Shown here one piece after another: positions 24,583 through 29,046 of a stretch of 64,000 nucleotides of DNA. The stretch lies in the NCBI GenBank assembly GCA_029007825.1, contig JAQXIO010000062.1, positions 1,252 through 65,251 of the forward strand, read 5' to 3'. The number at the start of each line of letters is the position of its first letter. The first letter of the stretch is position 1. The notes beneath the pieces were generated by a model. That model ran no database searches and was not told the DNA's origin. It saw only the letters and a program-made list of their open reading frames with translations. A program made the position numbers and the translations under genes. The stretch comes from Bacteroidales bacterium. Lineage in GTDB: Bacteria; Bacteroidota; Bacteroidia; Bacteroidales; JAQXIO01.

Positions 24583-25266
24583 ATGGGATATACATCAATC
24601 GATTATAATGAGCTTCATCTTCCAGTGGAAGAGATTTATGAGGCGATGGGGTACAGCGGCGACAGCATGCCGGAGGATGTGATTGCCGATGCGGTGCAGG
24701 ATGTGTTGCGTATTGCAGCGGAGAAGGTCGATCCGTCTTGTTTTTTTACGATCCAGGCGGCGGATATTCTCAGGGAGAGTATTGTTTTGGGCGATACAGA
24801 ATTTGAGACCGGCAAGATTATAGCGAAGTTGCTGCAGGGTTCGGATCAGGTGGCATTATTTGTCGCCACTGCGGGAATGGGCTTCGAACGCTGGACGTAT
24901 GAGCTGAAAGAGGAAGGGGATTATCTGAATATGTTTATTGCGGATTCGATAGGTACGTGTATCGTGGAGAAGGCGGGTGATTATATGGAACGTATGCTGG
25001 AGCTGGAGATTACGGGCTTAAAGCATACAAACCGTTTCAGTCCTGGATATTGCGGTTGGCCGGTGGCAGAGCAGCGGAAGTTGTTTGCGCATTTGCCGGA
25101 GGGTGTCTGTGGTATAGAGTTGAAGGAGAGTTGTCTGATGGTTCCGATAAAATCGATCAGCGGTATTATCGGGATCGGTGCAGATGTGAAGGCGAAGGTT
25201 TACAGTTGCCATGTGTGCGATATGGATTCTTGTTTCCGTCGCCGTAATAACCGTATTGCCGTTTGA
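24583..25266 (+). CDS. stand-alone methionine-synthase-type B12 reactivation (activation) domain protein
   Basis: RFSPGYCGWPVAEQRKLFAHLP...GIELKESCLMVPIKSISGIIG parallels the MetH activation-domain core R.APGYPACPEHTEK..LF.LL....G..LTES.AM.P..SVSG. Confidence 0.8.
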   Translation: MGYTSIDYNELHLPVEEIYEAMGYSGDSMPEDVIADAVQDVLRIAAEKVDPSCFFTIQAADILRESIVLGDTEFETGKIIAKLLQGSDQVALFVATAGMGFERWTYELKEEGDYLNMFIADSIGTCIVEKAGDYMERMLELEITGLKHTNRFSPGYCGWPVAEQRKLFAHLPEGVCGIELKESCLMVPIKSISGIIGIGADVKAKVYSCHVCDMDSCFRRRNNRIAV

Positions 25267-25669
25267 CGGGTGCTATTTGTTTTCATTGCAGAGGTGTTGT
25301 TTTTAACTTTTACGGAAAAATGTTTTGACAGTTTGTTCCGGGTGTAGCCGGGTCATTTTTGTATCTTTTCGATCGTATAGGAGTTAAAGTGGTCTGTTTT
25401 TAACTTCGTGTCGATAACACTACGTCTGGCAGAGAACAAGGTTACCTGAGTTCTGCTGTCGCTTAAACGTGTTTTTGAACTATGTTCGAAAGTGCTTCGT
25501 TCGGCAAAAAACGAATTAACTCGTTTTCTACTCTTTCTTAAACGCACTTTTCCTGTCTTTTCAATCAAAATCTCCTAACAATTATTTTTTATTTCGGATA
25601 AAATTTAAACAGGTTTCAAAGATGGAGGGGATAAGGTTTTTATGGATGTGTTATTCCGATAATTTTTTT

Positions 25670-25677
25670 TATCTTTG
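25670..25677 (+). promoter_or_regulatory. candidate -7 promoter element TATCTTTG for the MFS-corrinoid operon
   Basis: Matches TAnnTTTG 23 nt upstream of ATG 25700. No clear -33 TTTG was found. Confidence 0.35.
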
Positions 25678-25699
25678 AGGTGTATCCCACAGATTTACT

Positions 25700-27091: not shown

Positions 27092-27102
27092 AACAGACAT
27101 TT

Positions 27103-27771
27103 ATGAGTGAGTTGTTAAAGCAAATAGCTACTTGTATCGAATTCGGCAAGGTTAACCAGGCTTCTCCTTATCCTCCACAAATGCGTGGACAAGAGGGTGC
27201 CGACGAGTTGACGAGAAAAGCCCTGGAAGAGGGTATTGCTCCCGCACAGATTCTGGAGGAGGGATTGGTTTCGGCTATGGCAGTAGTTGGTCAGAAATTC
27301 TCCGAGAATAAGATTTTCGTTCCGCAGATGTTACTTTCTGCAAAGGCTATGAATGCTGCGATGGTGCATTTAAAGAAGTTTTTCAGCAGCGGCGAGGTTA
27401 CAAAGAAGGGTACGGTTATTATGGGTACTGTTATGGGAGACTTGCATGATATAGGGAAGAACTTGTGTGCTATGATGATCGAGGGCTCGGGATATGAGGT
27501 TATCGATCTCGGTGTGGATGTGAAGCCGGAACAGTTTGCAGAGAAATTAAAGGAGCATCCGGGTGCGTGTATCGGGGTTTCTGCGTTGCTAACGACTACT
27601 ATGGTTAATATCGAACTGGTGGTGAAGGCGGTAAGGGCGGTTGATCCTGCGTGCAAGGTAATTGTGGGCGGGGCGCCTCTTAATACTGATTTTGCTAAAA
27701 AGGTGGGTGCTGATTTTTACGGCAGGGATCCACAGGCGGATATCGATTATCTTCATTCTCTCAGTGCATAA
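27103..27771 (+). CDS. corrinoid (cobalamin-binding) protein of a methyltransferase system
   Basis: N-terminal helical cap plus a Rossmann B12-binding domain with the D-x-H-x-x-G motif (GDLHDIGKN). Confidence 0.9.
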   Translation: MSELLKQIATCIEFGKVNQASPYPPQMRGQEGADELTRKALEEGIAPAQILEEGLVSAMAVVGQKFSENKIFVPQMLLSAKAMNAAMVHLKKFFSSGEVTKKGTVIMGTVMGDLHDIGKNLCAMMIEGSGYEVIDLGVDVKPEQFAEKLKEHPGACIGVSALLTTTMVNIELVVKAVRAVDPACKVIVGGAPLNTDFAKKVGADFYGRDPQADIDYLHSLSA

Positions 27772-27783
27772 ACAGCGTTAAAT

Positions 27784-29046
27784 ATGAATTCAAAACAGAA
27801 TCTGGCAGAAGTACTGAATCATCGTCAGGGAGCAAAGATTCCTATCGATTTCGGAGGTTCTTCCGTTACGGGGGTACATGTTTTTACGGTTGAAAAGTTA
27901 CGGGCTTATTACGGTTTGCCGTGGAGGCCTGTAAGGGTGATCGAGCCTTACCAGATGTTGGGCGAGGTGGATAGCGAACTGGTCGATGCCGTGGGTATCG
28001 ATGTGTTGCCTATGATGGGGAGGAGCACTATTCTCGGTACGGTAAACGAGGGTTGGCGGGAGTTCAAGACTTTCTGGGGACAGACGGTGCTTGTTTCGGC
28101 TGATTTCGGCCCTAAGTACGATGATAACGGTGATTTGCTGTCTTATCCGGAGGGTGATATTTCGGTAGAGCCTTCGGCCAGAATGCCTAAAAGCGGTTAT
28201 TTTTTCGATGCAATCGAGCGTGAGACTCCTCCTTTCGACGATTCGAATCCGAATGTGGAAGACAATCTGGAGGAGTTCGGTGCGATTTCGGATCAGGATC
28301 TTGCCCATTTCAAGTCGCTGGCGGATGGTCTCCGGGGCAGTGGAAAGGGGGTGCTGGGCAGTTTCGGCGGAACGGCGTTAGGCGATATCGCTTTAGTGCC
28401 GGGAATGAGCCTGAAGCATCCGAAGGGTATCCGGGGAATTGCCGAATGGTATATGTCCACTCTTACGAGGTCCGATTATATTATGGAGCTGTTTGAGCGC
28501 CAGACGGATATTGCTATCGAGAATCTTAAAAAGATTCATAGTGTTGTCGGTGATGTCGCGGATGCGGCTTTTACCTGTGGAACGGATTTCGGAACGCAGA
28601 ATTCTCTATTTTGCGATGCGGATACATTCAGTTTCCTTTATAAGCCGTATTATAAAAAGGTTAATGACTGGATTCATTCCAATACGAATTGGAAGACTTT
28701 CAAGCATAGTTGCGGCGCTGTATTTCCGTTGATTGCCGAGTTTATCGATGCGGGTTTCGATATTGTAAATCCGGTGCAGATCAATGCGGACGGTATGGAT
28801 CCGAAAAAGTTGAAGGAGACGTATGGTGACCGTATTACTTTCTGGGGCGGGGGTATCGATACGCAGAAGATTTTGCCTTACGGCACTCCGGAGGAGGTGC
28901 GTGAGCATGTTTTGCGACAATGTGAGATTTTCGGTAAGAACGGAGGTTTCGTATTCAATGCGGTGCATAATGTTCAAGCGAATGTCCCGATAGAGAATTT
29001 CGGTGCTGCGCTGGAGGCTGTGAAGGAGTTTAACGGCGAGAAGTAA
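27784..29046 (+). CDS. uroporphyrinogen-decarboxylase-family (MtaA/CmuA-like) methyltransferase
   Basis: 420 aa with the URO-D fold pattern, an H-x-C-G putative Zn site (KHSCGAV) and a C-terminal GGFVFNAVHNVQ. Confidence 0.8.
   Translation: MNSKQNLAEVLNHRQGAKIPIDFGGSSVTGVHVFTVEKLRAYYGLPWRPVRVIEPYQMLGEVDSELVDAVGIDVLPMMGRSTILGTVNEGWREFKTFWGQTVLVSADFGPKYDDNGDLLSYPEGDISVEPSARMPKSGYFFDAIERETPPFDDSNPNVEDNLEEFGAISDQDLAHFKSLADGLRGSGKGVLGSFGGTALGDIALVPGMSLKHPKGIRGIAEWYMSTLTRSDYIMELFERQTDIAIENLKKIHSVVGDVADAAFTCGTDFGTQNSLFCDADTFSFLYKPYYKKVNDWIHSNTNWKTFKHSCGAVFPLIAEFIDAGFDIVNPVQINADGMDPKKLKETYGDRITFWGGGIDTQKILPYGTPEEVREHVLRQCEIFGKNGGFVFNAVHNVQANVPIENFGAALEAVKEFNGEK

Follow-up and report, generated by a model that had tools for sequence, protein, structure and literature searches.

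A sugar porter, corrinoid protein and UroD-type methyltransferase cassette of a gut Bacteroidales as a candidate system for B12-dependent O-demethylation of methylated sugars

A stretch of 64,000 nucleotides of contig JAQXIO010000062.1 from a Bacteroidales bacterium (hereafter the window) contains a four-gene cassette which, we believe with slightly better than even confidence, encodes the substrate-side half of a cytoplasmic, corrinoid-dependent pathway that would remove the O-methyl group from a methylated neutral sugar, or possibly from a methylated cyclitol, after its import. The four genes share one direction in the open reading frame (ORF) calls (plus strand) and encode a stand-alone MetH-type activation-domain protein of 227 aa (Act, 24583-25266), a 463-aa transporter of the major facilitator superfamily (MFS), sugar porter family (25700-27091), predicted to import the methylated substrate, a 222-aa corrinoid protein of the MtaC/MtbC/MtgC type (CP, 27103-27771), and a 420-aa UroD-superfamily methyltransferase (MT420, 27784-29046), predicted to be the substrate:corrinoid methyltransferase (MT1). 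The MFS and CP genes are separated by 11 nt (27092-27102) and the CP and MT420 genes by 12 nt (27772-27783). The operon-like MFS-CP-UroD run given in a preliminary description of this DNA was thus recovered, together with the Pfam and NCBIfam families of its proteins and all of the motifs that had been named.

The fold of MT420 can be securely predicted to be a UroD-type (beta/alpha)8 barrel that is MtaA-like. The protein matched PF01208 (URO-D) at 1.3e-12 (47.8 bits, cut-off 23.9), over residues 216-416 only, and contains the motif HSCG at aa 308-311. A PDB profile search with the MT420 family alignment gave nothing useful; only the last 60-75 residues aligned to UroD sequences in the PDB. 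In a PDB fold search, which returned MtaA and UroD structures only, the best matches to the AlphaFold model of MT420 (pLDDT 89.7) were MtaA of Methanosarcina mazei (4ay7/4ay8), followed by many UroD structures, with a probability of 1.00 and TM values of 0.54/0.65. On the MtaA/CmuA and methylcobalamin:coenzyme M (CoM) models (TIGR01463 / NF004889), MT420 scored 33.1 against a cut-off of 235.4 and 35.3 against 244, and no match to the HemE model TIGR01464 was found at E<=0.01. The MtaA-like companion methyltransferases that are encoded in relatives reached 113-173 bits on the MtaA/CmuA models and so were below the cut-off too. By these scores, MT420 is outside every characterized clade with which it was compared (MtaA/CmuA, methylcobalamin:CoM and HemE), a placement compatible with the demethylation hypothesis of the preliminary description. 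Identification of MT420 as MtaA/CmuA, HemE or Mlp was rejected on the basis of the model scores and the zinc ligands described below.

The MT420 family is large: over 8000 homologues were found by shared words, and an exhaustive search gave 7874 representatives at E<=0.001 and, at E<=1e-30, 673 clusters (50% identity). The orthologous group (at least 56% identity to the window protein) has a mean column identity of 68-71% and, judged by record titles, includes metagenome-assembled genomes (MAGs) of Bacteroidota, Planctomycetota, Acidobacteriota, Myxococcota and Chlorobiota. Gene neighborhoods were evaluated in 80 species-level loci around MT420 orthologues, with neighbor statistics calculated on 75-80 of them; individual loci are denoted by L numbers.

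An hhalign comparison with the MtaA-like companions aligned H308-x-C310 of MT420 with the HxC zinc motif, and the position of the third cysteine of the MtaA-like enzymes (in 'GC') was occupied in MT420 by an invariant histidine, H395. Relative to the MtaA-like enzymes, MT420 contains ~85 extra residues (approximately aa 46-100 and 121-148) that are predicted to be beta-rich, and it has three further invariant cysteines, C265, C277 and C380. The alignment suggests a putative zinc site of the His-Cys-His type (H308, C310, H395) and not of the thiol-type His-Cys-Cys. When the UroD-type enzymes of these loci were aligned, they fell into two classes, one with the pattern HxC...C (MtaA-like, e.g., MT349 of L084, MT333 of L067, MT334 of L078 and MT331 of L160) and one with the pattern HxC/D...H (the MT420 family, MT387, MT358 and MT365), and it was found that MT420 adjoins a His-Cys-Cys enzyme in seven loci (L084, L067, L027, L074, L078, L024 and L071). 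Within the UroD superfamily, His-Cys-Cys marks S/Se-methyltransferases, and O-methyltransferases replace the Cys ligands (PMC10418091). Because a His-Cys-His class that repeatedly adjoins a His-Cys-Cys enzyme is the pattern expected of an MT1 together with an acceptor-side methyltransferase (MT2), we infer that MT420 is an O-type enzyme of the donor side (MT1) that stands beside a thiol-type MT2.

The competing explanation that survives best is that MT420 is itself an acceptor-side MT2 (MtaA-like, moving the methyl group from methyl-CP to a thiol or selenol, with the donor enzyme encoded elsewhere) or that it demethylates a methylthio compound, such as a methylthio-sugar. We consider this explanation unlikely. 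In its favor, the closest solved structure is that of MtaA, the HxC motif is kept and accompanied by the additional invariant cysteines, thioredoxin-fused UroD methyltransferases and CobW occur in the fuller loci, and the related mlp clusters have been proposed to act on methyl-S/methyl-Se compounds (PMC10418091). However, the third zinc ligand of MT420 in the alignment is His and not Cys, the acceptor role is already filled by true His-Cys-Cys MtaA-like enzymes in the same loci, and these companions score far higher on the MtaA/CmuA models (130-173 bits) than MT420 with its 33-35 bits. Furthermore, MT420 tracks sugar transporters, glycosidases and kinases, as a substrate-specific enzyme should.

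The transporter belongs to the sugar porter family, as the preliminary description had proposed: it matched PF00083 (Sugar_tr) at 1.1e-107, scored 350.3 bits on the sugar-porter model TIGR00879 (curated cut-off 237.8), and contains PETPRWL at aa 196-202, PETKGK at aa 438-443 and two GRK motifs. It was below the equivalog cut-offs for XylE (320 versus 608) and GlcP (287 versus 750). A sugar-porter MFS gene was present in 32 of the 80 MT420 loci and was directly adjacent to MT420 in 23-24 of ~75-80. Expressed per length of DNA, there were 36 MFS matches in 1.12 Mb around MT420 orthologues, compared to a single match in 1.12 Mb around CP genes (itself beside an MT420 gene) and none in 0.89 Mb around Bacteroidota Mdh genes. 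The adjacency of sugar porters to MT420 is not due to chance. It was seen in at least five gene orders, in both Bacteroidota and Planctomycetota, namely u188<MT>MFS>GH2, 3-keto-disaccharide hydrolase-GFO-MFS-MT-MFS-GH2, MFS-GH120-MT-GH29-hexokinase-GH2, MFS-MT (in a Sedimentisphaerales MAG) and MT-CP-..-MFS (MT denotes the methyltransferase and GH a glycoside hydrolase family).

Closer to the window, a relative with 85% identity has the order Act-MFS-CP-MT and then, as in the window, the sensor-kinase and Mdh genes, a relative with 82% identity has CP-MT-Act-MFS-HcyMT-AP_endonuc_2 (HcyMT, homocysteine S-methyltransferase), and a relative with 75% identity has MFS-(135 aa)-CP-MT. Relatives with 79% identity have GH2-GH2-MT349-MT420-..-GH2 and GH42-SSF-GH116-MT358-MT420-GH36. 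The three genes proposed in the preliminary description to form a unit therefore do recur together, and MFS adjacency is far above the controls. The mobile member is CP, which is adjacent to MT420 in only ~10 of 80 loci.

A recognized carbohydrate gene was present within three genes of MT420 in 54 of 75 loci. The neighbors, in loci from several phyla, included GH2, GH29, GH120, hexokinase, GFO/IDH/MocA and 3-keto-disaccharide hydrolase genes, and in other loci GH36/31, GH3, GH35, GH95, apiosidase-like, sulfatase and SASA esterase genes along with GntR and AraC regulators; the sugar transporters nearby were of the SSF, MFS or ABC types. This context extends to more distant full-length homologues, as a 50% relative is found in the order LacI-MT-galactokinase-MT-GH4-sugar-binding protein, a 45% relative lies among GFO/IDH/MocA, AP_endonuc_2 and sugar ABC genes, and a 40% paralogue is followed by CP. 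If a free sugar is the product, a sugar kinase is expected directly beside the methyltransferase, and hexokinase adjoins MT420 in Prolixibacteraceae loci. Galactose-related genes (beta-galactosidase-type GH2, GH35, GH42, GH36 and GalK) were the most frequent hint to the substrate. Taken individually, the galactosidases and galactokinase would point to galactose, the hexokinase to glucose or mannose, GH29, GH95, GH120 and the apiosidase-like protein to sugars of rhamnogalacturonan II (RG-II), and GFO and AP_endonuc_2 to cyclitols. Assignment of one substrate from gene context was dropped, with several incompatible hints remaining.

It is also conceivable, and in our judgment quite unlikely, that the substrate is a methoxylated aromatic compound (a flavonoid, a lignan or a glycoside), the glycosidases and the sugar-type transporter then handling the glycoside part. 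The UroD-superfamily O-demethylases OdmB and VdmB act on phenyl methyl ethers (PMC10418091), O-demethylation of methoxy-aromatics in the gut is well documented (e.g., PMC12915777), and the phenolic glycosides of plants are also deglycosylated by members of GH2, GH3 and GH78; a sister cassette in Bacteroides stercorirosoris, described below, adjoins a GH78 rhamnosidase. Such a substrate does not readily explain the sugar kinases directly beside MT420 (the hexokinase of Prolixibacteraceae and the galactokinase of the 50% relative), a transporter that exceeds a curated sugar-porter threshold, or the recurrence of sugar-type regulators (LacI, GntR, AraC) and of sugar ABC/SSF transporters. In addition, the MT420 family is abundant in MAGs from peat, sediment and soil, where it lies amid polysaccharide-degrading genes, and no aromatic-ring catabolic genes were seen near MT420 in the loci examined.

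The two remaining proteins of the cassette would supply the corrinoid side of the predicted demethylation. The CP contains the domains PF02607 (B12-binding_2, 2.2e-18) and PF02310 (B12-binding, 2.9e-23), with DLHDIG (DxHxxG) at aa 113-118, SAL (SxL) at aa 160-162 and GG at aa 189-190; it scored 164 bits on TIGR02370 and 183 bits on the MtgC-type model, both under the equivalog cut-offs. Act matched PF02965 (Met_synt_B12) at 4.9e-12 (46 bits, cut-off 25), in agreement with the stand-alone MetH-type reactivation domain that had been noted upstream of the run. The RxxxGY motif is the S-adenosylmethionine (SAM)-binding motif of MetH, and it is present in Act as RFSPGY at aa 151-156. Among 31 homologues encoded beside CP genes, RxxxGY and a MxPxKSxSG block were invariant, as were four cysteines, C157 and C209-x2-C212-x4-C217, which may form a metal or Fe-S site. 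Act is therefore a dedicated reactivation component of the MetH type and not of the RACo type. In 80 loci centered on the CP subfamily (~60% identical to the CP of the window), Act was present in 28-29 and RACo in 38, and the two activases look like alternatives. CP and/or Act adjoin MT420 in 12 or more lineages, including that of the window and eight other loci (L008, L052, L053, L076, L088, L122, L127 and L136), and CP stands beside MT420 also in Acidobacteriota MAGs, in the orders MT-CP-HcyMT (L071) and MT-CP-Act (L075).

These associations bear on a further possibility, that MT420 is a UroD-like enzyme with some other carbohydrate-related activity (a decarboxylase or other) and that its adjacency to CP is incidental. 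This would agree with the scarcity of CP genes within 8 kb of most orthologues, with the weak and partial Pfam match, and with the location of H395 at the position of a conserved His in true UroD. Yet 10 CP matches were found in 1.1 Mb around MT420 compared to none in 0.9 Mb of control DNA, the gap to CP is only 12 nt here, the orders MT-CP, MT-CP-Act and MT-CP-HcyMT recur in both Bacteroidota and Acidobacteriota, and MT420 has the invariant HxC that is absent in true UroD and does not match TIGR01464; we consider this possibility very improbable. A biosynthetic direction, in which methyl-CP charged by another donor would methylate a sugar that the MFS protein exports or recycles, is barely credible: corrinoid methyl transfer can run either way in vitro, but MT420 lies in catabolic surroundings (importers, kinases, glycoside hydrolases and regulators that respond to sugars), genes for glycosyltransferases or polysaccharide synthesis were not adjacent to it in the loci examined, and sugar porters are proton symporters for uptake.

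The favored demethylation pathway requires an acceptor for the methyl group, and the preliminary description had remarked that a single methyltransferase was present with no pterin-binding or tetrahydrofolate (THF) module. This was found to hold for the whole window, because tblastn searches of the 64 kb revealed no second UroD, no pterin-binding or homocysteine methyltransferase, and no MtaB, RACo, MTHFR or FTHFS. The idea of a hidden MT2, THF module or further activase elsewhere in the window was rejected accordingly. In relatives, a homocysteine S-methyltransferase (PF02574, 1.7e-73) is encoded in seven MT420 loci (L024, L036, L071, L078, L086, L122 and L136). The fullest sets are those of L024 and L078, which contain MT420, MtaA-like methyltransferases, CP, a thioredoxin-fused methyltransferase, a stand-alone HcyMT and Act, with CobW in addition in L078; L036 has MT420, CP, HcyMT and Act with no other methyltransferases, and L052 has MT420, CP, a thioredoxin-fused methyltransferase, CobW and Act with no HcyMT.

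The 80 CP-centered loci place the same CP subfamily in four settings. The first, seen in ~35 environmental Bacteroidales (L099, L101, L103, L107, L110, L112 and ~30 more), has the order MTHFR<pterin-binding methyltransferase<FTHFS<formate/nitrite transporter<AraC<CP>RACo and is predicted to be a route by which Bacteroidales that are not acetogens oxidize methanol or methyl groups to formate. The second, GH31-unknown-SSF-CP-methyltransferase-Act, was found in gut and rumen Bacteroidales, including the cultured Bacteroides stercorirosoris. The third is CP-thioredoxin-methyltransferase-CobW-Act, and the fourth is CP-HcyMT-Act, which also stands alone. MtaB adjoins the CP subfamily in ~10 of the CP-centered loci and is accompanied by CP and sometimes by MT420 in L088, L127 and L104. 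Four MAGs in which MT420 is unlinked carry the first setting or CP-MtaB elsewhere (pairs L030/L099, L060/L112, L049/L132 and L029/L154). These arrangements suggest that MT420 may be a substrate-specific plug-in and that CP, the activase and the acceptor would form a shared back end, possibly encoded elsewhere in the genome.

The second setting is represented by the sister cassette of B. stercorirosoris DSM 26884, a cultured Bacteroides from the human gut (L160; NZ_FQZN01000003.1, 355-14349). It encodes a DUF3826 protein, a RhaM-like protein, GH31, an unknown 353-aa protein, an SSF sugar symporter, a CP that is 65% identical to that of the window, a 331-aa UroD methyltransferase of the His-Cys-Cys type, and Act, with a GH78 rhamnosidase/BNR protein on the opposite strand. 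The 353-aa protein, which has no Pfam match, may be the donor-side enzyme. The same gene order was present in MAGs of Paludibacter and in MAGs from the rumen of goat, yak and roe deer, and the cassette of the cultured strain would be a tractable model. As a separate observation, fusions of a UroD methyltransferase with one or two thioredoxin-like domains, followed by a CobW GTPase and Act, were found in six loci (L024, L078, L052, L097, L114 and L151) from Bacteroidota and the cultured marine Neiella (L151, Gammaproteobacteria). One of the thioredoxin-like fusion domains matches the 'HUIPC motif (seleno)protein' model, and the loci resemble mlp clusters that have been proposed to function in methyl-sulfur/methyl-selenium metabolism.

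Gene content, fold, motifs and the statistical association of MT420 with sugar genes and corrinoid machinery were established directly, and from them a four-step scheme can be proposed; what each enzyme catalyzes, which way the methyl group moves, what the substrate is and which acceptor this host uses are all deduced from context. In the first step, periplasmic glycosidases encoded elsewhere would free a methylated monosaccharide, to be imported by the sugar-porter MFS protein. Then, as the family, fold, motifs and context of MT420 suggest, this predicted zinc-dependent enzyme would activate the ether oxygen and Co(I)-CP would take the methyl group, yielding CH3-Co(III)-CP and a free sugar that could enter ordinary catabolism (hexokinase and galactokinase genes adjoin MT420 in relatives). 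A chemical precedent is MtaB, in which methanol is bound to zinc and its aliphatic C-O bond is attacked by Co(I). In the third step, a second methyltransferase encoded outside the window would unload the methyl group; the likeliest enzyme is a stand-alone MetH-type homocysteine S-methyltransferase that would form methionine, as in the 82% relative, and in other lineages an MtaA-like His-Cys-Cys thiol methyltransferase, or a pterin-binding enzyme leading to THF, MTHFR, FTHFS and formate, might serve. Finally, from its domain and motifs, Act would rescue oxidized Co(II)-CP by SAM-dependent reductive methylation, like the activation domain of MetH, and its invariant cysteines may bind a metal or Fe-S center for the input of electrons.

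The preliminary description had proposed B12-dependent O-demethylation of a methylated sugar or cyclitol, and as far as sequence evidence goes this proposal is supported by the conservation of the unit, the placement of the methyltransferase and the sugar context. Methyl transfer to a thiol had been offered there as the alternative. A thiol acceptor is probable as the second half of the pathway, because relatives encode an HcyMT or an MtaA-like His-Cys-Cys enzyme beside MT420, and so this part of the suggestion stands, but not as a rival to demethylation. At somewhat less than even confidence, we advance the broader idea that MT420 represents a large and unrecognized family of O2-independent, B12-dependent sugar or cyclitol ether demethylases, spread over Bacteroidota, Planctomycetota, Acidobacteriota and other phyla in polysaccharide-degradation loci, that would pass the methyl group directly to homocysteine (as a folate-independent methionine synthase fueled by the diet) or, in other lineages, to THF and formate.

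Several points weigh against sugar demethylation by this cassette. About 85% of the MT420 orthologue loci have no CP within 8 kb, and in the window itself the pathway is incomplete, as it lacks an acceptor methyltransferase. The MFS and GH2 adjacency comes largely from a few related Bacteroidales lineages (6 of 20 clusters with MFS at 70% identity), and the conflicting hints from gene context do not fix the substrate. The zinc site may yet contain two Cys ligands, with the invariant C265 and C380 as candidates. In terms of chemistry, the known O-demethylase substrates release a phenolate, which is a better leaving group than an alkoxide.

Transcription of the cassette was evaluated from the DNA around it. 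The spacer between Act and MFS is 433 nt long (25267-25699), compared to 88 nt in the 85% relative. The TAnnTTTG consensus is the established -7 promoter box of Bacteroides, and a match, TATCTTTG, lies at 25670-25677 on the plus strand, 22 nt 5' of the MFS start, as a putative promoter of MFS-CP-MT. It is the sole plus-strand match across 24257-30012; in the window as a whole TAnnTTTG is not enriched (63 found, 59 expected), and so for TATCTTTG only the position is suggestive. A terminator-like hairpin with a 15-bp stem (29256-29289, plus strand), a consensus match only, lies between the convergent MT420 and sensor-kinase genes. Because the -7 box precedes MFS and the hairpin follows MT420, the genes MFS, CP and MT420 appear to be cotranscribed, with Act possibly on a transcript of its own. 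A weak terminator-like hairpin is also present inside the Act-MFS spacer (25337-25352). No known RNA element or cobalamin riboswitch was found with Rfam in the Act-MFS spacer or 5' of Act, even at E<=5. In public RNA-seq data, one contig of 234 nt covers the CP gene at 27434-27667 with 100% identity, and the use of public RNA to infer the operon or its expression was rejected, as this single contig was too little to define a transcript.

Convergent to MT420 is the gene of a 1254-aa hybrid sensor kinase (29293-33057, minus strand) with periplasmic-binding-protein-like, GAF, HisKA, HATPase and receiver domains in Pfam. It is a possible regulator of the cassette. Its candidacy as a conserved partner was rejected, because it holds the same position only in the 85% relative and is absent beside distant orthologues; it is also unrelated to the 1288-aa neighbor in B. 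stercorirosoris, which is the GH78/BNR protein.

As for the host, sequence of the window was found in pig-gut and other gut metagenome runs, and its Mdh is closest (80-85%) to genomes of Porphyromonadaceae, Paludibacter and Parabacteroides, which confirms the gut Bacteroidales origin that had been suggested. The best match of MT420 in the genome collection had just 62% identity, and so the host would be a gut Bacteroidales species with no representative genome.

Other features of the window were recorded as separate observations. Just upstream of the cassette, following a tRNA gene (18391-18463), the region 18000-24300 has a low GC content (0.32-0.38) and contains ORFs with no Pfam match and one that carries the type IX secretion system (T9SS) domain Por_Secre_tail (21793-22728); this region is possibly an inserted island. 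Strand asymmetry is unusually large for a segment of a bacterial chromosome over the whole window (1-64000; G 16887 versus C 11113, T 20670 versus A 15330), with GC skew positive in every 2-kb bin, including the minus-strand sensor-kinase gene, and approximately zero over the minus-strand Mdh. Two full-length cobalamin riboswitches that face each other (39326-39524, plus strand, 100.7 bits; 45167-45365, minus strand, 98.5 bits) flank a block of four genes (39623-45067) encoding DUF4465, Por_Secre_tail and DUF5074 proteins and a TonB-dependent receptor. This block, 10-16 kb from the cassette, looks like a separate B12-uptake locus and fits with B12 scavenging. A divergent pair of genes encodes a GFO/IDH/MocA oxidoreductase (36832-38163, minus strand) and an AP_endonuc_2 protein, a xylose-isomerase-like TIM barrel (38360-39235, plus strand); both families recur beside MT420 relatives (L081, L086, L036 and L170), a hint of a branch for cyclitols or keto-sugars.

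A methyl ether on a sugar stands in the way of its ordinary catabolism. Such ethers occur naturally as 2-O-methyl-fucose and 2-O-methyl-xylose in RG-II, as 3-, 4- and 6-O-methyl-galactose in plant and algal galactans, as 3-O-methyl-rhamnose, and in pinitol. Full-text searches of an open library found no paper on corrinoid- or cobalamin-dependent sugar demethylation, and the only sugar demethylation described is that by an O2-dependent P450 in marine aerobes (PMC6292453). If the proposed function is true, the cassette would do for anaerobes what the P450 sugar demethylases do for aerobes, and it would fill in a step that is missing from models of how anaerobic gut and sediment bacteria degrade glycans completely. 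It would also introduce aliphatic sugar ethers as a new substrate class in corrinoid methyltransferase chemistry, give gut Bacteroidales a new reason to compete over vitamin B12, and link dietary fiber directly to the supply of methionine and one-carbon units. The idea is directly testable because the MT420 family occurs in cultivable relatives.

Compared to known systems, the machinery of the cassette is familiar, and what appears new is the substrate class, the architecture (a sugar porter first and a MetH-type activase) and the likely coupling to homocysteine. The three-component O-demethylases of acetogens and Desulfitobacterium (OdmB/VdmB/MtvB) similarly have a UroD-superfamily methyltransferase beside a small MtaC-type CP and a dedicated reactivation protein, and they share the modularity of a swappable substrate enzyme with a common acceptor side. 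They differ in that their substrates are phenyl methyl ethers, whereas an aliphatic sugar ether is predicted here, and in that the cassette begins with a sugar-porter MFS and lies amid glycan-degradation genes. The window also lacks their THF-methylating MT II, a role that in relatives would fall to MtaA-like enzymes or a MetH-type homocysteine domain, and the activase is a SAM-type MetH domain and not an ATP-dependent RACo/Ram.

To our knowledge, MtaB is the only well-understood example of methyl capture by Co(I) from an aliphatic C-O bond with zinc activation. MtaB of the MtaB/MtaC system has a different fold and belongs to a different family (PF12176), and the substrate of the cassette would enter through a sugar porter and would far exceed methanol in size. 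MtaA/MtbA/CmuA (PDB 4ay7) share with MT420 the TIM-barrel fold, which gave the best structural match, and the HxC motif. In contrast to these enzymes, MT420 is far below the model cut-offs, has His for the third Cys and ~85 extra beta-rich residues, and is predicted to work in the direction of substrate to cobalt instead of cobalt to thiol.

Type 1 mlp clusters (PMC10418091) also combine UroD methyltransferases with a CP and an activase and have no THF methylase, and mlp-like His-Cys-Cys and thioredoxin-fused enzymes are present in the fuller relatives (L024, L078 and L052). These clusters need at least Mlp2 and Mlp3 (His-Cys-Cys) with CP and Ram/RACE, whereas the window has one methyltransferase that is not His-Cys-Cys and belongs to a different subfamily, a MetH-type activation domain with no RACo, and a carbohydrate context instead of an S/Se context. 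In the split or modular MetH systems (MtgBCD of Ruegeria pomeroyi, PMC12478193; split MetH and core methionine synthases, PMC7857596), one CP serves both nutrient demethylation and methionine synthesis, as is proposed here, and there are likewise stand-alone homocysteine and activation modules; the difference is that they have an MttB-family donor enzyme acting on glycine betaine and a central pterin module, whereas the cassette has a predicted donor enzyme of the UroD type in a sugar context and the window has no pterin module. The P450 6-O-methyl-D-galactose demethylase of marine aerobes (PMC6292453, PMC10033563) addresses the same problem, removal of the methyl group after glycoside hydrolysis, and shares galactose-related neighbors with MT420. 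The P450 route is oxidative, needs O2 and yields formaldehyde, whereas demethylation by the cassette would be independent of O2 and would conserve the methyl group.

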